NCBI GenBank assembly: GCA_963848295.1
Contig: CAWKDB010000010.1
Span: 4,480,001-4,544,000 of the forward strand
DNA from: an uncultured delta proteobacterium
Lineage (GTDB): Bacteria > Myxococcota_A > Polyangia > Haliangiales > Haliangiaceae
Direction of reading: 5' to 3'
DNA: 64,000 nt
Numbering within the stretch: position 1 is the first letter of the stretch; each line of letters opens with the position of its first letter. This document shows, piece by piece, positions 26,712 through 44,894 of this stretch. A program made the translations under genes and the position numbers. The notes beneath the pieces were generated by a model. That model saw only the letters and a list, made by a program, of their open reading frames with translations, ran no database searches and was not told where the DNA came from.

Positions 26712-29290
<2,579 letters not shown>

Positions 29291-29439: not shown

Positions 29440-29991
29440 TCACTCGGCCGCGTTCGCCGCGTGCCACGCTATGTTTGCCGTGTGGACGGCGTTCGCGGTC
29501 GCAACCGCGGAGTCGACGAGGTTCTGCGAGAAGTACGTGTCGCCGTCGCCGTGCGGGTTGACGCCGATCGGGTGAGTCGGGCCATAGCCGCCCGTCACGC
29601 CGGTGCCGCCGTCGACGGTAACGCCGAGATACACATCGGCATAGTTGTACGCCGCGTTCACGTTGACCTCGAAGTTGTGCTCCTGGTCCTGTCCCACGCG
29701 ATACACGGCGAACACCTTCGTCGCGTCCTCGATCATCCAATGGTAGGACGTCGGCAGGTTGTCGGTCAGCTTGCCGCCTGGGTCACCGTAGGTCACCAGC
29801 TCCTGAATGCTCGTGGCTCCGGTCGGAACGTAGTCCGTGAAGTCCGGGAACCGGTTTGCGGTCCACAGCGCGACGGTGACGTCGCTTGGCGGTGGGACCG
29901 AAGTGGTCAGCTCGGAGGCGCTCGACGACGTGGTCGGGTTGTCGATGCAGCCGGCGAGAACAGCGAACAGGATCGGAAGTGCGAGACGCAT
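29440..29991 (-). CDS. Hypothetical lipoprotein, probably co-transcribed with the CHAT gene
   Basis: MRLALPILFAVLAGC lipobox; GAGGAG RBS; 26 nt after the CHAT gene stop. Confidence 0.8.
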   Translation of the reverse strand: MRLALPILFAVLAGCIDNPTTSSSASELTTSVPPPSDVTVALWTANRFPDFTDYVPTGATSIQELVTYGDPGGKLTDNLPTSYHWMIEDATKVFAVYRVGQDQEHNFEVNVNAAYNYADVYLGVTVDGGTGVTGGYGPTHPIGVNPHGDGDTYFSQNLVDSAVATANAVHTANIAWHAANAAE

Positions 29992-30017
29992 GGTGGGCTC
30001 CTCTTGGGTGACGGACT

Positions 30018-32966
30018 CTACTCGAACACGATCACGTCTCGCACCCATTCTTCGTGGTGCGATGCGATCCAGGCGATGCGTGCATCGCGCAGCGCGATCG
30101 CTACTGGGGACTTCCCCAGGATGCGGGCACGCACGTCATCGAAGAACGCACCGCCGTCGTTGTCGGGGATGGCCGACGCAGACGCGATCACGGCGCGCGC
30201 GCCCGCAGACACGAACGCTGCGGGCAAGCTCCAGCGCTCGTGCAGTACCGGTGCGGCCTGGCTCGCGCGACACGCCGCGAGGATCACGAGCGGGCTGGCA
30301 TGAAACCGCGCGGCGGCGACCTCGGCCGCGGTCAACGCATAACGGCCGTTCGCATCGGGCGACAACGCGAGATACGAGGCGTCCGACACGTCGGCGATGC
30401 CGTGCGCGTGGATCGTGACATCGCTTGCCTCGCCGATCGCCGCGAGCACGCGCTCGGGTGTGGCGGCGTCGCCCGAGATCAGCTCGGCTCCGGCCGCTGA
30501 CCATGTCGCCAGTCGGGGCAGGTGCAGCTCGGCGGGCGGCACGACGTCCGCGACGACGATCCGTTGCTCGCCTGCGGTCGCGACCGGTCGCTTGCGCGCT
30601 CCGAGATAGCGCCAGGCGATCGCGTCGGGCAGGATGCGAGCGACGCCATGCAGCGGCGGCCGTGCGATCACGTCGACGATATCGCAGTGCTCGAGCGCCG
30701 CAACGACCTCGCGCGGGACGAGGGTCGCGCCGTCGATCGCCGTCGTCGTGCGCGCCTGGTGACTCGCGACATAGGCGCCATCCCACCCGCGCGCGACCGC
30801 GATCGTCGTGGTGTCCTCGGCGGCGAGTCCGAGTGCGCAGCGCTCGGGCTCCGGGACTCCGAGCTCTTCGCTGAGCGCGCGCAACGCGTCCGCACCATCA
30901 CCGCGTTCGGCCGCTGCGACGGCGATCATCGAATAGCCCATGCCCTCGACGTGCCGCGCGTTCGGATCGTCCGGCGTCGCGTGGGCGGTCGCGATCGATC
31001 GGCGAAGTAGCGCCTCGCCGGCGGCCGGATCTCGAGCGAGCGCGAGCCGGCCCTCGGCGTTGTCGAGCAACGCACGATCGACCGGCGTGATCGTGGGAGC
31101 CGTGCGCACCGCGGCGATCTCCGCGCGCACGGCGTCGAGTTGCGCAGGCGTGCCGACGAGGCGCATCACCTCGGCGCGCACGAACGCCGCATCCGCCGCA
31201 TCCGCGTTGCCACTGCGCGGCGAGCTACATGGCGGGACCAGGGTTAGCTCGTGCGCGGCTTCGGCGAACCGCAGTTGATTGACGAGCACGGTCGCAACCC
31301 GCTCGTGGCCCCAGCGGACGACGTCACAAGCATCGTTGCCGAGCTCGAGGCTGCGCAGGCCACGGCGCTGTTCGTGCGCGGCCCGGGCGGCGGCCTCGGC
31401 GGTGTACGCGCGTGCGCTCGCCAAACCGCCGCCGGTGGCGTCGTCGGCGAGCACGGCAAGCTCGGCGAAGTCCGGAATGATCGCGCTCGCGTACTCCCAC
31501 TCGCCGACCTGCGACATGAGATGCCAGGCCTGGTCGAGTGAGCGGCGCGCGTCGCCCAGCCGTTGCTCGTGGAGGTAAAGCTCGCCGAGGCCGAGCGCGA
31601 TCTTCATGCAGCGAAAGCTCGGCGCACCTGCGGCGCACGCCGGACGTGCGCGCATGAACATCGCCTCGGCGCCGTCACGATCGCCGCGCGCGAGTTGCGC
31701 GTTGGCTTGTTGCTCGAGGCCGAGTACCTGGATCCACGGATCGGGAGACGCGGCCGTGAGCTTGGCGAACTCGGCAAGCTCCGCGGGCTTGACGGCGCCG
31801 TCATCGCCGAGCGCGAGCAGGGCGCCGATCAGCAGGTCATCGGCGTGGGCGGCACGCAACGCGGCGAGAAACGGCGCGCGTGCCGGCGGGTGACCGGACA
31901 GGATCGCGAGGTAGCTCGCCGCGAGCTCCGGCCGCGGCGCACCGCGATCGACCGCGGCGATCGCCGTGGTGGTGTGATCGGCGGCATCGATCGCCGCGGC
32001 AATCGGACGCAGCGCCTCGACGCGTTGCCGATCCGGCGCGGAGCGCAGCGCGTCGTACAGCTCGATCCGAGCGACACCCGGCGCGGTACGCGCGTCGTCG
32101 GGCGTCAGGCCGCGGCCGTGCTGTGCCATGCCAGACGCGAGGCCCGCGATCCGCAGATAGTCATCGAGCTCGCGGTCGATGGTCGTATCGAGCGCGGCAG
32201 CGCGCTTCGTCGCTTCTTCGGCCCAGCCTGGCTCGTGACGATCGGCCACGGCGTGAAACGCCGCACTCGCCGTGTAACGCAGCCCGAGGTCGCGCAACGC
32301 GAGCGCGCGATTCCACGTCGCGACCGCATGGCCCGGCGAGAGCTCGAGCGCGCGGTCTGTCAACTCGAGCGCGACGGTCGGCTTACCGTCGGCGAGCGCG
32401 AGCGCGGCGCGATCGGCGAGCACATCGGGCGAGGTCGCCGCGCGCTCGAGATAGGTCGCGGCTTGAGCGCGATCGCCGTCGAGTAGCGCGAGCACGCCCA
32501 CGCCCTGGAGGTCGCCGGTGCGCTCGACGTCGGCGAGCTGCGTCAACGGAATAGCCTCGTGCGAGGCTTGCTCGCCGCGCGCCACGTTATAGGGCCGGAA
32601 GCCGGCCGCCGGGCCCCATGCCACGCGCGCTTCGAGCTGGCGATCGCTCGCGAGCGCGAGCGCGACGACCGAGGCCGGCGAGGACGCACGCGGCTTCGTA
32701 CCGAGGTAGATCGCCAGCCCCGCGGCCGCGGCGAGCGCGACGCCGCCGATCTGCACGGCTCTCCGCCGATACCACGCGAGAGGGATGACGTCGGTCGCAC
32801 GGGCCGGTGCGGGCGTGGGCATGGCCGCGAGCTGCATCAGGTCTGCAAGCTCGGCCTGACACGACTCGCACGTCGCGAGGTGGGCGCGCGCCGCTTCGGC
32901 CGCTTCGCCACTCAGCTCGCCATCGGCGAGGAGGTGCGTGTGCTCGAGCTCGAGACAGTCGCTCAT
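30018..32966 (-). CDS. zf-HC2 anti-sigma finger - TM - TPR-like - CHAT (caspase-like) protease fusion
   Basis: N-terminal HLATCESC; TM VQIGGVALAAAAGLAIYLG; TPR-like ATWNRALALRDLGL; CHAT motifs ATPERVL, TIHAHG, LVILAACRAS, LPAAFVSAGARAVIAS; ATGA overlap with the sigma gene. Confidence 0.88.
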   Translation of the reverse strand: MSDCLELEHTHLLADGELSGEAAEAARAHLATCESCQAELADLMQLAAMPTPAPARATDVIPLAWYRRRAVQIGGVALAAAAGLAIYLGTKPRASSPASVVALALASDRQLEARVAWGPAAGFRPYNVARGEQASHEAIPLTQLADVERTGDLQGVGVLALLDGDRAQAATYLERAATSPDVLADRAALALADGKPTVALELTDRALELSPGHAVATWNRALALRDLGLRYTASAAFHAVADRHEPGWAEEATKRAAALDTTIDRELDDYLRIAGLASGMAQHGRGLTPDDARTAPGVARIELYDALRSAPDRQRVEALRPIAAAIDAADHTTTAIAAVDRGAPRPELAASYLAILSGHPPARAPFLAALRAAHADDLLIGALLALGDDGAVKPAELAEFAKLTAASPDPWIQVLGLEQQANAQLARGDRDGAEAMFMRARPACAAGAPSFRCMKIALGLGELYLHEQRLGDARRSLDQAWHLMSQVGEWEYASAIIPDFAELAVLADDATGGGLASARAYTAEAAARAAHEQRRGLRSLELGNDACDVVRWGHERVATVLVNQLRFAEAAHELTLVPPCSSPRSGNADAADAAFVRAEVMRLVGTPAQLDAVRAEIAAVRTAPTITPVDRALLDNAEGRLALARDPAAGEALLRRSIATAHATPDDPNARHVEGMGYSMIAVAAAERGDGADALRALSEELGVPEPERCALGLAAEDTTTIAVARGWDGAYVASHQARTTTAIDGATLVPREVVAALEHCDIVDVIARPPLHGVARILPDAIAWRYLGARKRPVATAGEQRIVVADVVPPAELHLPRLATWSAAGAELISGDAATPERVLAAIGEASDVTIHAHGIADVSDASYLALSPDANGRYALTAAEVAAARFHASPLVILAACRASQAAPVLHERWSLPAAFVSAGARAVIASASAIPDNDGGAFFDDVRARILGKSPVAIALRDARIAWIASHHEEWVRDVIVFE

Positions 32967-33535
32967 CGCGCCCCCCGTGCTCGGATGAAGGCGTCCTTGA
33001 GCTTCTTGCGCGCACGCAACAGCCGGGTTCCGACCGTCGCCTTCGCGATCCGCAGCTCGGCGGCGATCTCGTCGTACGACCGGCCCGCGGTGTGAAGCTC
33101 GTAGACGGTGCGAAACTCTTCGCCGATCGTCGCGAGCGCTCGCGCGATCTCTTCGGACGTGACATCGGCCCACACCGGCGGCGCGACCGGCTCGGGCATC
33201 GCGATCTGGATGTCATCGAGCGCCTCGATCTGAGGCGCGCGCTTCGCCCGGCGACAGCGATCGATGAACAGGTTGTGCATGATCGTCATCAGCCACGCCT
33301 TGACGTTGCCGCTGTCCGCGTAACGGTCCCAGTTACGCAGCGCGCGCACGTAGGTGTCGTGGACGAGATCGTGAGCATCGGAATCGTCGCGGCACAGCCG
33401 TCGCGCGGTCGCGAATAGCAACGATTCGTGCGCCTGCACCGCGTCGGCCATCGCTCTGCCACCAGTCGCGGTCACCGCGCGCGCAGGCTGCCACGCGTCA
33501 CGCGCGAGGGTCAAGGCGGCGGTCGACGCAGGCAT
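32963..33535 (-). CDS. ECF (sigma-70 group IV) RNA polymerase sigma factor
   Basis: Region 2: DAHDLVHDTYVRA...KAWLMTIMHNLFIDR. Region 4: SYDEIAAELRIAKATVGTRLLRARKKL. Alternative start at 33451. Confidence 0.93.
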   Translation of the reverse strand: MPASTAALTLARDAWQPARAVTATGGRAMADAVQAHESLLFATARRLCRDDSDAHDLVHDTYVRALRNWDRYADSGNVKAWLMTIMHNLFIDRCRRAKRAPQIEALDDIQIAMPEPVAPPVWADVTSEEIARALATIGEEFRTVYELHTAGRSYDEIAAELRIAKATVGTRLLRARKKLKDAFIRARGAR

Positions 33536-33586
33536 CCGGAACCTGTAACGCCGAGCTCGCCAAATCTTCCCGCGGAGTTTTCGTCG

Positions 33587-33610
33587 GGAACATCGCCGAC
33601 CGGCGGCGTT
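33587..33610 (+). promoter_or_regulatory. Candidate ECF-type promoter GGAAC-N15-CGTT for the divergent cargo operon
   Basis: AAC and CGT boxes resemble a generic ECF promoter, about 30 nt upstream of ATG 33641; the spacer is slightly short. Confidence 0.35.
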
Positions 33611-33640
33611 TGGCTCGCGAACGAACCCAGGAGCCTTCAG

Positions 33641-35437
33641 ATGACACTTCGAACGCTTGTGCTTGCCAGTGCCGGCGCTGCCGCGATGCTCGCGAGCCGC
33701 CCATCCCACGCCGACTCGGTGACCGACGTCTCGAACGGCACATCGATCTTTGTCCAGTACGCGCACGCGATCCTCGATGGCAACTCGTATCGCACGGCCG
33801 GCATCGTCGTCGCGAAACCGGCCGGCACGCTCGACTTCCCGCTGCCCGCGAGCGCGATCGGCCTGAACCTCCCGATCACGCTGCACCTCAACGGATCGTC
33901 GATCGGCGGCAACATCATCCAATTCACATTCAACGATGCGTTCGCCGACGTGGACATCACCGGCAACGGAGACTTGCTCACCGGTGCGAGCGGCGTCCTG
34001 CTCGTCATCGCGGCTCCGCTCGCCGGCGCCCAGTCGGCGATCTGCAACAACACCTCGTGTCCGGGCGATGTCTCGCTCGAGCTCGTGGGCGCGACGGTCA
34101 CCGCGACCGGAACCTGGGGCAGCGAACCGGTCGCGCTCGAGTCGGCTCGCGGCGTCGGCGGCGTGCCGCGCGCTCGGATGAACGGCCTTGTGGTGCCGAC
34201 CACGAGCACCGATTCGCACGGCAGGGTCTATCCGTTCTGTTCGGCGACGAATGCGACGACCCCGGGCGATCTGGTCGTGGCGCTCACCGGCGTCGCGCCG
34301 AGCGGCGGCACTCGGGTCGATCTGACGGCGCCGCACGGCTTCGGCTTGCCGAACAGCATCATCGTGCCGCAGGGGCTCACCAGCTACGACGTCCCGTTCA
34401 CCGTGCCGGTGAACTTCGTCGGCTCGATCGAGCTCGCGGCGGCCGCAGGTGGCGCGACGAGTAGCGCCGAGCTCGTCGTCGACCCGGCGATCGATTGTCA
34501 GCCGCCGGCGAGCCGACCGGGCTACGAGGCGTATGTCCCGCCGCTGCTCGTGGGCTGCACCCAGTGCTCGCAGTTCGTCGATCTCAACGACGAGAACTGG
34601 CAGCTCACGCAGGTTGGTAGCCAGTTGATCGTGATCATCGACGGCGCGCTGTCCCCGTTGCTCAAGGCGTTCCCGCAGGCGACCGCGGTCGGCGCCGATG
34701 CGCTGAACGACAGCGGGATGATCGCGGGCCGGATGACGGTCGGCGGCGTGACGCAAGCGTACCGCGCGAACCTCGCTTACGGCGCGCACGGCGCTCAGCT
34801 GCTCGGCGCGATGGTCCCCGAAGACATCGGCTCGAGCGGAACGGTCGTCGGCTATCGCTCGGACGCGAACGGCCTCCACCACGCGGTGTTCAGCGACGGG
34901 CGCGGGGTGACCGACCTCGCGCTCACGTCGTCTTACGGCATCGAAGAAGCGCGCGCACTGCGGATCTCGCCGTCCGGCCAGGTCATCGGGACGTTCACCG
35001 GCAACGACGGCGTGATCCGCGGCTACCGCTGGGTCGACGGCACGACCTATACGCTGCCGAACCTCGGCGGCTCGCCGGCGATCCCGGTCGCGGTCGATCG
35101 CCTGAACGACATCGCGGTCAACTCGAAGAGCGGGGCCGCGATCATCGGAGCGAACGGCACCGTCCTCGCGCTCGGCAATCCGAGCGGCTACGTCGGGTTC
35201 GAGATCACGTCGCTCAATCGCTATGGCTATGCGGTCGGCAACGCGTCGCCGGCGGTCGGCCTCGCGAGCGTCTCGCAGGGATTCGTGTGGATCCCGAAGC
35301 GCGGGTTCGTCGCGCTCACCAACTACGCGAAGGGCCTGTCAGTCGACCAGGCCCTGCGCATCACCGACACCAATCAGGTCGTCGTCCACGGCACGACGTC
35401 CGCCGGGATCGCCGACCTCTACCTGATCACGTTGTGA
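33641..35437 (+). CDS. Secreted multidomain protein with Ig-like segment and C-terminal HAF-like beta-propeller repeats
   Basis: Sec signal (…SHA|DS); AGGAG RBS; repeats ADALNDSGMIAG, DIGSSGTVVG, ISPSGQVIG, LNRYGYAVG. Confidence 0.75.
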   Translation: MTLRTLVLASAGAAAMLASRPSHADSVTDVSNGTSIFVQYAHAILDGNSYRTAGIVVAKPAGTLDFPLPASAIGLNLPITLHLNGSSIGGNIIQFTFNDAFADVDITGNGDLLTGASGVLLVIAAPLAGAQSAICNNTSCPGDVSLELVGATVTATGTWGSEPVALESARGVGGVPRARMNGLVVPTTSTDSHGRVYPFCSATNATTPGDLVVALTGVAPSGGTRVDLTAPHGFGLPNSIIVPQGLTSYDVPFTVPVNFVGSIELAAAAGGATSSAELVVDPAIDCQPPASRPGYEAYVPPLLVGCTQCSQFVDLNDENWQLTQVGSQLIVIIDGALSPLLKAFPQATAVGADALNDSGMIAGRMTVGGVTQAYRANLAYGAHGAQLLGAMVPEDIGSSGTVVGYRSDANGLHHAVFSDGRGVTDLALTSSYGIEEARALRISPSGQVIGTFTGNDGVIRGYRWVDGTTYTLPNLGGSPAIPVAVDRLNDIAVNSKSGAAIIGANGTVLALGNPSGYVGFEITSLNRYGYAVGNASPAVGLASVSQGFVWIPKRGFVALTNYAKGLSVDQALRITDTNQVVVHGTTSAGIADLYLITL

Positions 35438-35451
35438 AAGGACCCAGGACC

Positions 35452-36243
35452 ATGCACAAGCTACTTCGCGATTTCTCCTTCACCGTGGTCACCGCGTGCG
35501 TGCTGATCGCCTGTACCGGCGGCACGTGCACCCTGTTCGAGAAGAAGTGCGATTCACATCTGACGGTGCCCGCGATCGGCGCGTGCCCGAGCGACTTCAA
35601 CGGCTTCGGCGGCTACGGCCAGCCGTGCAACGATCCCGGCACGTGCAACGGCGGCGGGCTCGCGTGCGTCGAGGGGACATGCCTCCCATGCGGTGGCCAA
35701 GATCAAGCGTGCTGCACTCAGACCGAGGGCGGGCCGGGCACGTGCAACGGCACGACCTGCGCCTATAACGGCTACATCGATTGGTATCAATGCGAGGCCT
35801 GCGGCAACGCACTCGGCGCTTCGTGCTGCGAGGACAATCTGTGCAGCGTCGGGATGTGCGACACGAACACCGAGAAGTGCGTCGCTGCGACCTCGACGGG
35901 TGGCTCGACGACCTATTGGGTTTGGGTCGTCGATCCCGAGTGTGGTGCCCAAGCGCACGGCTTCGTCGCCGACTCGCAATCCGACGCGCAGAGTGCGGCG
36001 CAGACCTGGTTCACGAGCTCGTTCCCACAGAACGCCGGCTACTACCTGGGTGCGGCGAGCACGGGCGAGTACACGACCGCGCCGATGACGTACCAAGTCT
36101 GCCCGACGGAGTGCGCGGTGGTCGGTGGCCTGATGGAGACGACGAACACGCTCTACGCGTTCGATCCGAGCAAGATCCCGGCGTGCGAACAGCTGCTCGA
36201 CCACACGTGCAGCTGGTTGCCGACCGCGTGTCCGGGGGACTGA
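35452..36243 (+). CDS. Cys-rich putative lipoprotein
   Basis: Signal with LIAC; more than 20 Cys (PCGGQDQACC, CGNALGASCC); 14 nt after the upstream gene. Confidence 0.8.
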   Translation: MHKLLRDFSFTVVTACVLIACTGGTCTLFEKKCDSHLTVPAIGACPSDFNGFGGYGQPCNDPGTCNGGGLACVEGTCLPCGGQDQACCTQTEGGPGTCNGTTCAYNGYIDWYQCEACGNALGASCCEDNLCSVGMCDTNTEKCVAATSTGGSTTYWVWVVDPECGAQAHGFVADSQSDAQSAAQTWFTSSFPQNAGYYLGAASTGEYTTAPMTYQVCPTECAVVGGLMETTNTLYAFDPSKIPACEQLLDHTCSWLPTACPGD

Positions 36244-40195: not shown

Positions 40196-43135
40196 TCAGT
40201 GCAAGCGCCCGAGCAGGCCGTCGATCTCGACGATGCGCTTCGCCATCGGGCTGCCCTTCGCGCCTTGGCTGTAGATCGCTCGAGCGGCTAACAGCAGGCG
40301 CTTGGCTTCGACCGGATCGCGATGCAGCTCGACGAGGGCGTGCGCCTTCTCGAGCTCGGGCCAGGCAACCGCCTGTTGCTCCGCGCGCGCGCCCGCGACG
40401 GCCAGCGCGGCGGTCGCATCGCGGAGCTCGCCCTCGCGATCGCCGAGCCGGCCTTCGCACGTCGCGACCTGGGTGTACGCGAACGCGAGACGGTCGCTGT
40501 CGGGCATCGCGGCCTTGCGGATCTCGAGGCAGCGGCGAGCGGTCGCGAGCGCGTCGTCGAGCTTGCCGGCCGCCTGCTGGTCAGCGGACAGGTTGTACAG
40601 CAGCCCCGCGAACGACTCGGTGTTCGGGCCGAGTAGCTTCTCCTCGGCGGTCAGCGCGCGTTGCAGCCGTTCGATCGCGCGGTCGTAGTGACCGTGGTCG
40701 CTCTCGATCAGCGCGAGGTTCGTATCGCAGCTCGCGACCATCGAGCTATCCGGACCGAACTCGTGCTCGAACGTCGCGCGCGCGGCCTCGAGCAACGGCT
40801 CGGCTTCGTCATCGCGATCGTCTTCGAGCAGCGAAGCGCCGAGGTTGAGCTGCGCGTTCGCGACGTCCTCCGGAGCGCCCTTGCCGGCGCGCGCGAGCTC
40901 GAGTGCGTGTTGCCCGAGCTTCGTCGCGGTCTCGTTGTCACCGAGGTCCTTGTAGGTCAGGGCTTCGCCGGAGATCAGCCGAGCGAGCCGGGCGTCTTGG
41001 GGCCCGAGCGTGTCGGTGATCGTGGCGATCGCGGACTCGTACTCCTCGATCGCGTGCTTGGCATCGTTCGCGTCGCCGAGGATCGCGGCGTACTCGGCGT
41101 CGGCGGACGCGAGCGCGAGCGGCGACGCACCGTCCTTCAAGACCGAGATCGCGTGCTCGAGCTGCACGCGAGCGTGGGGCAGGTCCCCGCTGACCGCGAG
41201 GACCCGGGCGAGCGTGACCTGCATCCGCGCTGCGCCGAGCGGATCGGTGCGCTCGAACAGGCTCTCTTCGGATTGCGCGAGCTTGATCCACGGCTCGAGC
41301 TCCTTGAATCGCTCGCTATGACTGCCGACATCGAGGATCGAGCCAAGCGCCGCGAGCTCGACGCTGCGATCTCCGTCGGCGTGGGCTTTGTAATACGCAT
41401 CGCCGAGCTCGCTCAGCGAGCGCTCGACCTCACCCGATTCACCGTCGAGCGTTCCGCGGACGAGCCCGACGAGCTCTGCGAGCCCGCCGTGCTTGCCCAC
41501 TGGCGAGTCGCTGATCCGGTCGAGGGCCGCACGGGCCAGGTCCCGGTGGCCCGACTCGGCGCGATGCAACGCGACGAGCAACACCGCGCGCGCTTCGGAG
41601 ACGTCACGCCGGCCGATCGTGTCGAGCATCCCGTTCAGCGCGATCGGATCGCCGCATGGCCCGAGCGCGGGCAGGGTCTCGATCGTCGAGGCCGCGCTCG
41701 TGATGTCGAAGTTCTCCTGCAGCGAGCGCAACGCGGCGGCCGCGGTCACCGCGACGTCGTGGCGACAACCGATGCTGCGTTGGAACACGATGTCGGTCCA
41801 CTCGTGATGTTGATCGTGCGCTTCGCACGCCGCGACCGCGACCCCGCGATACGCCGCGGTGAAGTGCTCGATGTTCGAGCGCGCATGAGCGCCGACGTGG
41901 CCCGGCGCTTGATTCAGCCGAGCGACCACCTGCGTGCCGAGGCTCGCCGGAAAGTACGTCTCGAGGTCGTCACCGGCGGTGGCGCAGGTCGCCTCGCTCT
42001 GATCAGCACTGCTCGACAACACGTACGCCCCGGCACCACCCGCGACGAGCACGGCCCCGAGCGCGAGCGCCGGAACGAGCACCCGCTTGCGCGGCGGAAT
42101 CATCGCGGTGCGGATCGCGACGAGCAGCTCGCGCAGATCGCCATAGCGATCGCTCGGCTTCGCCGACAGACCGCGTTCGATCACCCTGCGCAGCGCGACC
42201 GGGACCTCGTTCGCCGGGGGCGTGCGCAGCTCGCGCCGCTCGATCGCCTGTTGCACCGCCTGCAACGTGCTGCCGGCGAACGGCCGCATCCCGAACAGCA
42301 GCTCCCACACGACGATGCAGAACGCGAACTCGTCACAGCGCGCGTCGACCTCGCCGGCCGCGTATTGCTCCGGCGCCATATACGCCGGCGTCCCGAGCAC
42401 GGTGCCGGTCTCGGTCATCGAGCTCGACACCGAGATCGGCCGGGACGACCCCGATCGATGCCCGCTCGGCACCGGCGTCGCGCTGGTCGGCGGGATCGAG
42501 AGGATCGCCGCATTCGCCCGGGCGAGCCCGAAGTCGCTGACGCGCGGCCGGCCGTCGGTGTCGACCAGCACGTTCTCCGGCTTGAAATCGCGATGAACGA
42601 TACCGGCCTTGTGCGCGGCGATCAGGCCCTCTCCGACCAGCAACATCATCTCGACGATCTCTCGCCACGCGCGCGGCTTCTCGGTCGCCCAGACGCGCAA
42701 CGTCGAGCCGCGCACGTACTCCATCGCGACGAACAGGCGGTCGCCGAGGCTGCCGACCTCGAACACGGTGACGACGTTCGGGTGTGCGAGCTGCGCCATC
42801 GCCAGGGCTTCGCGATACAGCCGATCGCCACCCGTGCCCGCCGGGTGGAGCTTGACCGCGACGTCGCGACCGAGCTGTTGATCGCGGGCGAGGTACACGG
42901 TGCCCATCCCGCCGCGGCCGAGCACCGACGCCACGACATAGCGCTCGCCGATCGACTGGCCGACCGGCAGCTCGACGATCGGGTCGGTGGCGAGCCGCGG
43001 AGGCTGTGCGTTCGAAGCGTCCTGCGTCTCGCCGTCGCTGATGCCGCGCGTGTGGTCGGGCGCGAGCGAGCCCGGCGTGGCGGGCGACGCCATCGTATTG
43101 GCGAGCGGAAGCTCGTCTTCGCGCTGGCCCGCCAC
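40196..43135 (-). CDS. Membrane Ser/Thr kinase with C-terminal TPR repeats
   Basis: GRGGMG, VAVK, HRDFKPEN, DFG, GTPAYMAPE; TM helix; TPR-like repeats; start is approximate. Confidence 0.9.
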   Translation of the reverse strand: MAGQREDELPLANTMASPATPGSLAPDHTRGISDGETQDASNAQPPRLATDPIVELPVGQSIGERYVVASVLGRGGMGTVYLARDQQLGRDVAVKLHPAGTGGDRLYREALAMAQLAHPNVVTVFEVGSLGDRLFVAMEYVRGSTLRVWATEKPRAWREIVEMMLLVGEGLIAAHKAGIVHRDFKPENVLVDTDGRPRVSDFGLARANAAILSIPPTSATPVPSGHRSGSSRPISVSSSMTETGTVLGTPAYMAPEQYAAGEVDARCDEFAFCIVVWELLFGMRPFAGSTLQAVQQAIERRELRTPPANEVPVALRRVIERGLSAKPSDRYGDLRELLVAIRTAMIPPRKRVLVPALALGAVLVAGGAGAYVLSSSADQSEATCATAGDDLETYFPASLGTQVVARLNQAPGHVGAHARSNIEHFTAAYRGVAVAACEAHDQHHEWTDIVFQRSIGCRHDVAVTAAAALRSLQENFDITSAASTIETLPALGPCGDPIALNGMLDTIGRRDVSEARAVLLVALHRAESGHRDLARAALDRISDSPVGKHGGLAELVGLVRGTLDGESGEVERSLSELGDAYYKAHADGDRSVELAALGSILDVGSHSERFKELEPWIKLAQSEESLFERTDPLGAARMQVTLARVLAVSGDLPHARVQLEHAISVLKDGASPLALASADAEYAAILGDANDAKHAIEEYESAIATITDTLGPQDARLARLISGEALTYKDLGDNETATKLGQHALELARAGKGAPEDVANAQLNLGASLLEDDRDDEAEPLLEAARATFEHEFGPDSSMVASCDTNLALIESDHGHYDRAIERLQRALTAEEKLLGPNTESFAGLLYNLSADQQAAGKLDDALATARRCLEIRKAAMPDSDRLAFAYTQVATCEGRLGDREGELRDATAALAVAGARAEQQAVAWPELEKAHALVELHRDPVEAKRLLLAARAIYSQGAKGSPMAKRIVEIDGLLGRLH

Positions 43136-43196
43136 GGCGACGATGGTACCCGAGTCGCCGGCCCGTAGGACGCGGATCGGGTTCCGGAGATGCGTC

Positions 43197-44894
43197 CTAG
43201 TTCGCGCTCTGCGGCAGCGAGCACCATGGCGTGAGGCCGGCGACCGGCAGCACGACATCGTTGGTCGCGCCGGACTGGTCGCACTCTTCGTCGGCGCTCC
43301 ACGCGTTCCAGTCGCCCGAGCGGCCGAGCGACGACGCGTAGCTCGTGAACGGATCGTAGCCACCGTTCGTCATCGCGAACACCGTCGGATCGACGCAGCC
43401 GCCTTGGGCTTGGGTCGTCTCGTATTGCTCGATGATCTGGTACATCGCGCTGGTCGTGTGGTCCCAGCAGCACGTTCGCGAGCTGGCGTAGGCGAGCGGG
43501 GCGAACACGTAGTCGTCGATCGTGCGGTACTGGGTGTCGACCGCGACCTGGTCCATGCCGAAGTTTGCGGCCATCAGCGTGTAGAGCTGGCCGAACGCTT
43601 GCTCGCGATCGGTGCGCGCGGCGCACGACGACGGATGGCTCGCGAGGTACGTGCGCTTTTCTTGGATCACGCCGACCAGCTGGTCGCGCTCCGCTCTCGG
43701 ATCGGGGTCGCCGAGGATCTCGCCGAACTTCGCGACCCGCGCCGCGATCGCATCGTAGTCCGTGTCGTTGATCCAGCTCGCTTCATCGGCGTTCATCCAC
43801 GTGTTCATCCACTTGCCGTCGTGGACCTTGGCGACGCGGAAGCGCTTGAGCCCGCCGTTGAGGTGCGAGTACGGCGTGTCGCCGCCGTATGCGGTGTTGA
43901 GATCCGGACCGCCCGCCTCGGGCGTGGTGAACAAGCTGCGGGTCTCGCCTGGGTCCTGCCACTCCGGCTGCGCCGGCGGATCGTTGCCGTAGATCGCTTC
44001 CGCTTGCATCAGGCCGCCGCCGAGCTGAGTGACGCGGGTGATCACGGTCGTGTGGCCATCGACGGTCGGAGCGCGCGCGAACATCAGGACGTCGCCGGTG
44101 CGCAAGGCTTCAGGTACGAGGTTGTACGTGTTGCGGCCGTCGACCATGTTGTGCGAGCCGAGGTACGCCTGCGTGAACATGATCAGGCGCGCGGCACGCT
44201 TGTTGAGGTGGATCTCGTCGAGGAATGCGCCGAGGCGTGCACCCGGGCCGAGATTCGGCAGGTCGTCGCCCGACGAGATGCCGCTGGTGCGCAGCGACGT
44301 GTCCTCGGGCCAGCTCGCGCCGTACTGCGCCGGCGATTCGTTGGAGTAGTCCGCATAAGCGGTCGCCCACGACGACGAGTGCGACCACTTGCCGGCCGCG
44401 GTGCGAACGCCGAAGTGGCCGAAAAACACCGGCGTCGCACCGTCGTAGCCGACCATGTAGAACGGCAGGTGATACCAAGCGGAGAACGACATCCGCAGCA
44501 TGATCGCGAGATCGGCGCAGTCGAGCTTCGGACCTGGCACTGACTTACCGAAGGGCGTCGAGATCGTGACGGTCGTGAACGAGCCGTCGAGGTTCGGAAT
44601 CTGTTGGAGCGAGCCGACCCACGCCGCGAACTTCTGATCCCAGTCGAGCCCGCTGTTCGCGCTCCACGCGATACCAGCGGCCTGCGCGGCAGCGCTGTCG
44701 GTGTCTTCCCATTGATTCGAGACGGTCCACGCTTGGGTCGCCGAGTAGTCGCCGTCGACCGGCAGCGACGGAACACCGACCGAATCTTCCTTGCCCAGTG
44801 GCGGGCCCGGATCGAGCTCGGTCGTGGACGTGTCGCCGCTGGCGCACGAGGTGGCGGCGATGGCAACGGTGAGCGCGATGAGGAAACGACGCAT
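43197..44894 (-). CDS. Large lipoprotein, possible papain/NlpC-P60-like Cys hydrolase
   Basis: ATSC lipobox; LDCADLAIMLR and GDVLMF...DGHTTVI motifs. Confidence 0.6.
   Translation of the reverse strand: MRRFLIALTVAIAATSCASGDTSTTELDPGPPLGKEDSVGVPSLPVDGDYSATQAWTVSNQWEDTDSAAAQAAGIAWSANSGLDWDQKFAAWVGSLQQIPNLDGSFTTVTISTPFGKSVPGPKLDCADLAIMLRMSFSAWYHLPFYMVGYDGATPVFFGHFGVRTAAGKWSHSSSWATAYADYSNESPAQYGASWPEDTSLRTSGISSGDDLPNLGPGARLGAFLDEIHLNKRAARLIMFTQAYLGSHNMVDGRNTYNLVPEALRTGDVLMFARAPTVDGHTTVITRVTQLGGGLMQAEAIYGNDPPAQPEWQDPGETRSLFTTPEAGGPDLNTAYGGDTPYSHLNGGLKRFRVAKVHDGKWMNTWMNADEASWINDTDYDAIAARVAKFGEILGDPDPRAERDQLVGVIQEKRTYLASHPSSCAARTDREQAFGQLYTLMAANFGMDQVAVDTQYRTIDDYVFAPLAYASSRTCCWDHTTSAMYQIIEQYETTQAQGGCVDPTVFAMTNGGYDPFTSYASSLGRSGDWNAWSADEECDQSGATNDVVLPVAGLTPWCSLPQSAN

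Follow-up and report, generated by a model that had tools for sequence, protein, structure and literature searches.

The closest described counterpart of the locus that we present here is the pair formed by the sigma factor DdvS and its anti-sigma factor DdvA; the locus itself is located in a stretch of 64,000 nucleotides (nt) from an uncultured delta proteobacterium (contig CAWKDB010000010.1, positions 4,480,001 to 4,544,000), which we refer to as "the window". As reported in the main text of PMC11506125, the DdvA/DdvS architecture has been solved by cryo-electron microscopy and nuclear magnetic resonance (PDB 8ROT, 8RW5 and 8RLZ), the zinc finger of DdvA binds the sigma factor, zinc-site mutants of DdvA release DdvS, and truncated DdvA is lost in an RseP-dependent way. 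The same source proposes, without having been able to show it, that a signal induces the self-cleavage of DdvA in trans, followed by the action of RseP; according to its authors, self-cleavage is testable only once the signal has been found. Many DdvA-like pairs of the Myxococcota are reported there, only some of them near defence genes, and its introduction describes Csx29, which acts on the sigma-binding substrate Csx30. The promoter motif of DdvS is given in PMC6061681 as GTAA-n16-CGT.

The locus at positions 29440..36243 of the window is one more DdvA-like pair without defence genes. Its extracytoplasmic function (ECF) sigma factor is DdvS-like (190 residues; 32963..33535, minus strand; Sigma70_r2 and Sigma70_r4_2 over the cut-off, by Pfam/NCBIfam), and the end of its gene overlaps by ATGA the gene of a DdvA-like anti-sigma factor of 982 residues (30018..32966, minus strand), which consists of a zinc finger, one predicted transmembrane helix, a linker, a TPR scaffold and a CHAT domain; a lipoprotein gene begins 26 nt past the stop of the 982-residue gene, and a divergent pair of genes starts 105 nt from the sigma ATG. 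The phmmer alignment with Myxococcus xanthus DdvA (8ROT/8RW5) spans residues 11-982 of the anti-sigma (E 2.5e-92), and the top structural match of its AlphaFold2 model (predicted local distance difference test, pLDDT, 89; predicted TM-score 0.84) is again 8ROT (E 2e-41, TM-scores 0.65/0.71, identity ~30%), with Csx29 and separase ranking below it (E ~1e-7, TM-scores 0.21-0.34). Residues His855 (30402-30404) and Cys899 (30270-30272) of the CHAT domain (30018..30860, minus strand) align with DdvA H862/C907. An initial annotation, made from the letters of the DNA alone, had described this gene arrangement, the RRR-helix anatomy, the dyad positions and the CHAT fold, all of which hold, and had named three domains, two of which are over the Pfam cut-off, i.e. 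zf-HC2 (residues 11-37, E 1.3e-5) and CHAT (residues 812-971, E 4.4e-16), the third, TPR_2, being weak and below it (E 0.011). Its statement that no system of such architecture has been characterised is superseded by DdvA/DdvS (PMC11506125), for which the self-cleavage model is also already published, as a proposal, and its nearest comparison, Csx29/Csx30, gives way to DdvA.

The window locus shares with DdvA/DdvS the translational coupling of the sigma factor to an anti-sigma of ~990 residues, the succession of finger, one transmembrane helix, scaffold, TPR and CHAT with the His-Cys dyad, an autoregulatory promoter (predicted here) with a 16-nt spacer before CGT, and a small gene directly after the anti-sigma. 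We favour, as the reading with a somewhat better than even chance, a switch of the DdvA/DdvS type. By analogy with DdvA, the zinc finger of the membrane anti-sigma would hold the ECF sigma factor and the anti-sigma would work as a dimer; an outside cue would activate the periplasmic, caspase-like CHAT domain, which may cut the linker of the partner subunit, likely after Arg130; RseP, again as for DdvA, would then cleave the transmembrane helix once the periplasmic part is gone, and the freed sigma factor would transcribe its own operon and the neighbouring, divergent pair of exported-protein genes. Because the cargo is exported, an outside protein or an envelope cue is suggested as the trigger, rather than a dedicated alarm of the cyclic-oligonucleotide-based antiphage signalling system (CBASS) or of the clustered regularly interspaced short palindromic repeats (CRISPR). 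Two RseP-family genes over the cut-off are present in this genome.

The control for the comparison is locus L160, a DdvA orthologue (1338 bits to 8ROT) whose flanks hold cyclases, a CHAT-SAVED protein and a C25 peptidase and show CBASS. The window locus lies on a separate branch from L160; its sigma factor and the DdvS orthologue encoded in L160 share 28% identity. The two types also differ in the promoter (GGAA-n16-CGT in the window, GTAA-n16-CGT in DdvA/DdvS and also in L160), in the linker residue (Arg instead of the Met of DdvA), in the flanking targets (exported proteins instead of CBASS/CRISPR) and in the downstream gene, which encodes a lipoprotein in the window and has a distant match without signal peptide in L160. 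Neither flanking CBASS nor type III-B CRISPR-Cas has been found at the locus, and neither SMODS (CBASS) nor RAMP (type III CRISPR) has a match in the genome, which is 85% complete; in view of the position of L160 on another branch and of the missing SMODS and RAMP matches, we do not count the locus among the strict orthologues of DdvA. In this same genome the CHAT profile has one match only, the 982-residue protein, no second DdvA-like gene has been found, and the three matches of PF02559 (open frames of 1317, 185 and 184 residues) include none identified as CarD. Craspase Csx29 and separase share the TPR-CHAT fold with the anti-sigma, but are cytoplasmic, act on separate substrates, are gated by RNA or securin, and have no transmembrane helix or zinc finger; with its membrane anchor, and with no RAMP match in the genome, the anti-sigma is not placed in Craspase. 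The uncharacterised pairs MXAN_4986 and MXAN_5507, listed in Table S7 of PMC11506125, have the same architecture and no flanking CBASS/CRISPR; no row of that table names Kofleriaceae or Haliangium.

These observations also bear on the proposal that the locus is an anti-phage switch like DdvA, with the exported proteins as surface defence factors, which is compatible with the DdvA/DdvS-type switch and which we consider unlikely. DdvA, the only studied member of the family, controls a defence island according to PMC11506125, and the exported proteins could have a defence function; on the other hand, SMODS and RAMP lack matches in the genome as stated, PADLOC gives no hit for the six locus proteins (the hits among seven neighbours being to generic kinase, helix-turn-helix, BRCT and methyltransferase models), and the cargo of the relatives includes trypsin-like proteases and lectins.

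The topology required by the switch is supported from several sides. The zinc anti-sigma finger (32859..32957, minus strand; zf-HC2), with candidate ligands Cys4, His29, Cys33 and Cys36 of the CHCC type, as in DdvA, matches 8RLZ (E 0.003), and its first ligand position is Cys or His in 77/77 finger-bearing sequences. The single transmembrane helix is called by hydropathy scale, charge bias and homology to DdvA: RRR at residues 67-69 directly precedes the sole uncharged hydrophobic window, residues 70-88 (32703..32759, minus strand; Kyte-Doolittle (KD) mean 1.86), which aligns with the transmembrane segment W71-L92 of DdvA. Across 39 sequences, the family mean KD is 2.06 in this segment versus 1.15 in the next best one, and Lys and Arg number 3.8 ahead of it versus 1.7 behind it. 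Six cysteines C-terminal of the helix are kept in at least 101/104 relatives, as expected of periplasmic disulfides; one helix after RRR, together with these cysteines, supports a periplasmic C-terminal region, in agreement with the initial placement of the CHAT domain outside the cytoplasm.

The relatives have been retrieved by an alignment-based scan of genome contigs (a single-protein scan gave no matches), with genes called by a codon-score caller that can misplace starts; two locus sets share some records, and the conservation counts given here refer to 104 distinct full-length proteins. Since the relatives share kinship, the linkage counts are descriptive and not statistical tests. DdvA-like matches occur in 21/41 genomes searched, a number to which the host genome, some weak partial hits and, for this count only, the unpublished genome G010 contribute; the close relatives with names are for the most part Kofleriaceae. 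A sigma gene is located directly upstream in 20/20 loci of the first set plus the window (in L046 by tblastn only); in a count from 79 loci, leaving out 6 without an assigned start and 10 without the CHAT end, it adjoins 52/52 finger-bearing genes versus 0/11 finger-less genes, as the expected linkage of sigma and CHAT genes requires. As a separate observation, tandem operon pairs of sigma and DdvA-like genes occur in Myxococcaceae (L163, L110, L116, L085 and L102), each tandem operon being followed by a short open reading frame of ~60 residues in place of the lipoprotein gene. Split forms are seen in L165:6407-12667 (minus strand) and L117, where a sigma factor and a CHAT-less finger protein stand beside a finger-less TPR-CHAT gene, the two genes being divergent in L117; the finger proteins of both split forms retain the linker Arg.

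His855 and Cys899 are invariant in 104/104 relatives, down to ~31% identity. The linker residue Arg130 (32577..32579, minus strand), part of a Y-x-V-x-R-G motif, is present in 88/104 by alignment column and in 95/104 when shifts are allowed, the exceptions having Met (3), Gly (4), Lys (1) or an unclear residue (1); its counterpart in the alignment with DdvA is Met131, which belongs to the loop V129-P140 facing the opposite active site. The Arg is also retained in 13/13 CHAT-less, finger-bearing relatives with a readable linker, some of these being truncated at contig ends or interrupted by frameshifts, and it has been lost in the finger-less CHAT protein of L165, the neighbour of a CHAT-less finger protein; this distribution of the Arg fits cutting in trans. 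Separase cuts after Arg (PMC11506125), and we regard Arg130 as the candidate P1 residue of a self-cleavage site. Five residues (His853, Leu814, Ala863, Asp862 and Asp871) that differ in the three Met-type sequences have been considered as a co-variation of P1 and pocket, which we have discounted, as these sequences form one clade.

Upstream of the sigma gene, the pattern G(G/T)AA-n16-CGT, chosen after the DdvS motif, occurs in 22/25 loci of at least 44% identity, window included, for which chance gives 0.84 on average and 4 at maximum (200 resamples), and in 45/76 loci overall; in the close loci, the conserved promoter reads GGGAA(G/C)A-n14-CGTT. The window carries the pattern twice, back to back, at 33547-33610: the sigma operon has its predicted ECF promoter, GGGAAGAT-n13-CGTT, at 33547..33571 (minus strand), and the divergent pair has its own, likewise predicted, GGGAACAT-n13-CGTT, at 33586..33610 (plus strand). 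With a matrix from 21 sites of other loci, these two sites rank first and third, respectively, in the 7.8-Mb genome. From the double occurrence we consider the divergent genes likely sigma targets. A consensus scan has found no sigma-70 promoter and no intrinsic terminator. The sigma ATG is located 11 nt past the -10 element, with similar spacing in many orthologues, and a nearly leaderless sigma message is therefore predicted. A genome-wide regulon beyond chance has been rejected. The site of rank 2 (L168:2121-2840, minus strand; G000 C10:43120-43839) is intergenic, before a predicted lipoprotein of 228 residues whose ATG is 9 nt past CGTT; it is a possible remote target, yet within the chance count.

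Among 46 related loci (708 kb), 56/56 sites of at least 17 bits are intergenic, 35 before sigma genes and 21 elsewhere. By hand count, of the 18 extra sites that have a gene no more than 140 nt away, several of them in sister loci, 16 lie before a gene whose product starts with a signal-like segment (signal peptides have been assigned by eye throughout); trypsin-like proteases, a beta-helix protein and a ricin-B-lectin-domain protein are among these genes, and the exceptions without signal are a kinase and an LGFP protein. In one clade (L033:7046-7228, plus strand; L035; L060), a signal-bearing peptide gene of 61-64 residues stands behind the divergent promoter. The divergent genes of the window encode an exported protein of 598 residues with a C-terminal HAF-repeat region (33641..35437, plus strand; TIGR02913, E 6e-8) and a Cys-rich predicted lipoprotein of 263 residues (35452..36243, plus strand). 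The former has 8 relatives, none of solved structure having been found, and the latter has no Pfam match; the 263-residue gene follows the 598-residue gene in 4/4 other loci with a long match (L169, L184-L186). In L169, whose orthologous pair is 62% and 56% identical to that of the window, the promoter is retained, with no sigma match beside the pair; the promoter is not kept before two more distant pairs, and one pair is cut by a contig end. The pair occurs in 4/90 other genomes of the genus, once as a short piece. A fixed cargo has been rejected, as no match to the pair has been found at any of the related anti-sigma loci retrieved; judged by these genes, the cargo of the family varies and is mostly exported.

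Several points weigh against the DdvA/DdvS-type switch with self-cleavage. Self-cleavage has yet to be demonstrated for any protein of the DdvA type, and PMC11506125 reports for DdvA an active site that is incomplete and at rest, dyad mutants that are like wild type in unstimulated cells, and no cleavage upon phage Mx4. Met takes the place of Arg130 in DdvA and in three relatives, and Arg109, Glu112, Arg114 and Arg124 are conserved as much as Arg130 or more, so that Arg130 may be structural; the Met-type and the Gly-type changes are each confined to one clade and count as single events. The promoter sites are predictions, and those of at least 20 bits in the genome (4) equal the chance expectation (3.9); the incompleteness of the genome is counted on the same side. 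The incomplete resting active site, the silent dyad mutants and the DdvS release by zinc-site mutants (PMC11506125) would suit a CHAT domain that does not cut but binds the linker or a ligand, the periplasmic bulk shielding the transmembrane helix from RseP until another protease or the oxidation of the zinc site intervenes; we hold this to be very improbable, as an invariant His and Cys at such low identities would be unlikely for a dead enzyme.

The lipoprotein gene (183 residues; 29440..29991, minus strand), the third of the operon, encodes a member of an unnamed, fast-evolving family. According to an iterated profile, a member is located directly after the TPR-CHAT gene in 65/101 loci with room downstream, i.e. 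in 26/26 close and 39/75 distant loci, or in 47/74 loci with a finger and 18/27 without; 84 of the 93 profile hits among 18,524 frames adjoin a TPR-CHAT gene. The initial expectation, in which the core is conserved and the exported cargo varies, holds for core and cargo, except that the downstream lipoprotein behaves, by these counts, as a conserved third gene and not as variable cargo; it may be accessory to the switch. The family is loose: the window protein seeds 339 clusters at 50% identity, the mean identity among members is 22% versus 53% for the anti-sigmas, a profile from one half finds 11/39 (close to distant) or 10/26 (distant to close) of the other, and the distant-only profile misses the window protein. 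No match has been found in Pfam or PDB sequences, and no usable one in the Atlas. The model (pLDDT 78) shows a small domain of the alpha/beta type, in which the Gly/Pro loop at 131-149 is disordered; Foldseek gives no match at E 0.001 or better, and the best VIA match is SRP14 (Z 5.7, root-mean-square deviation 2.9, 71 aligned), a level that is common. For a complex between residues 124-982 of the anti-sigma and residues 40-180 of the lipoprotein, the prediction has a score of 0.00, which counts neither way.

This third gene also enters another proposal, namely that the CHAT domain is an active protease with a different substrate in the periplasm, which may be the lipoprotein or a foreign protein that comes in, and that the sigma factor is freed by a shape change or by a separate site-1 protease. 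The lipoprotein follows the CHAT gene in loci without finger and sigma (the 18/27 above), it has the disordered loop, and finger-less TPR-CHAT proteins retain the dyad; nevertheless, its alignment holds no conserved basic residue to serve as a site, 36/101 loci without the family downstream still keep the dyad, and CHAT-less anti-sigmas retain the linker Arg. We judge this proposal to have a low probability. The gene after the DdvA orthologue of L160 matches the family moderately (E 1.7e-4, hhalign probability 66%); its lack of a signal peptide speaks against a periplasmic role in all members of the family.

Variants of the family have also been observed. Members without signal peptide occur in L160:10988-11404, L115, L129 and L040, 3/4 of them accompanying a Met-type linker. 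In two Myxococcaceae genomes, anti-sigmas of 413 residues (L119:5443-6681 and L122:6983-8221, both plus strand) consist of finger, transmembrane helix, Arg linker and scaffold, without CHAT, a lipoprotein-family domain being fused in frame in place of TPR-CHAT; the same genomes hold finger-less TPR-CHAT genes on other records (L086, L107). Members are located divergently upstream of sigma in L049:6372-6890 (minus strand) and L125, and as a tandem second copy in L089. The database protein P0098 (1234 residues) combines a DdvA-like part with a whole lipoprotein, with signal, at 1030-1222, being either a fusion or a read-through artefact.

Among the genes that flank the locus are thiC, a methyltransferase gene, ligA, a DUF4234 gene, a helix-turn-helix/shikimate-kinase regulator and an enoyl-CoA hydratase gene. 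The small DUF4234 membrane protein (28958-29290, minus strand), between the lipoprotein gene and ligA, has not been found in related loci. The segment 36247-40173 holds the helix-turn-helix/shikimate-kinase regulator, the enoyl-CoA hydratase-family gene (both by Pfam) and a gene of 471 residues; together, these three resemble the benzoyl-CoA genes boxR/boxC/boxB. A Ser/Thr kinase with TPR repeats follows at 40196-43363 (minus strand); such kinases flank several related loci too.

As both the architecture and the idea of self-cleavage have been published, the locus is not a new system; what it adds are handles for the members of the family that are not linked to defence, namely the candidate cut site Arg130, a reporter promoter and a conserved third gene. 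We have found neither the lipoprotein family nor the promoter nor the Arg site described in the mainly open-access literature searched, PMC11506125 (main text) included; in that main text, the words lipoprotein, secreted and promoter motif do not occur. For the family as a whole, a tentative and rather doubtful generalisation is that its common form may consist of three genes that control exported proteins through Arg-specific self-cleavage. In this form, the fast-evolving lipoprotein would gate the periplasmic CHAT domain, the linker of the partner subunit would be cut after the Y-x-V-x-R motif, and the sigma factor would then act on GGGAAGA-n14-CGTT promoters of interchangeable cargo (secreted proteases, lectins and lipoproteins), whereas the Met-type, defence-linked DdvA would be derived; if this is true, the missing trigger for proving autoproteolysis could be had by deleting the lipoprotein or exchanging it for another. 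The Arg linker, the promoter and the lipoprotein are all present in cultured Myxococcus and Corallococcus loci (L088, L093, L097, L108 and L109), and the question of cleavage is therefore testable in cultured relatives. If confirmed, a self-cleaving, caspase-like anti-sigma factor would extend regulated intramembrane proteolysis by a new form.

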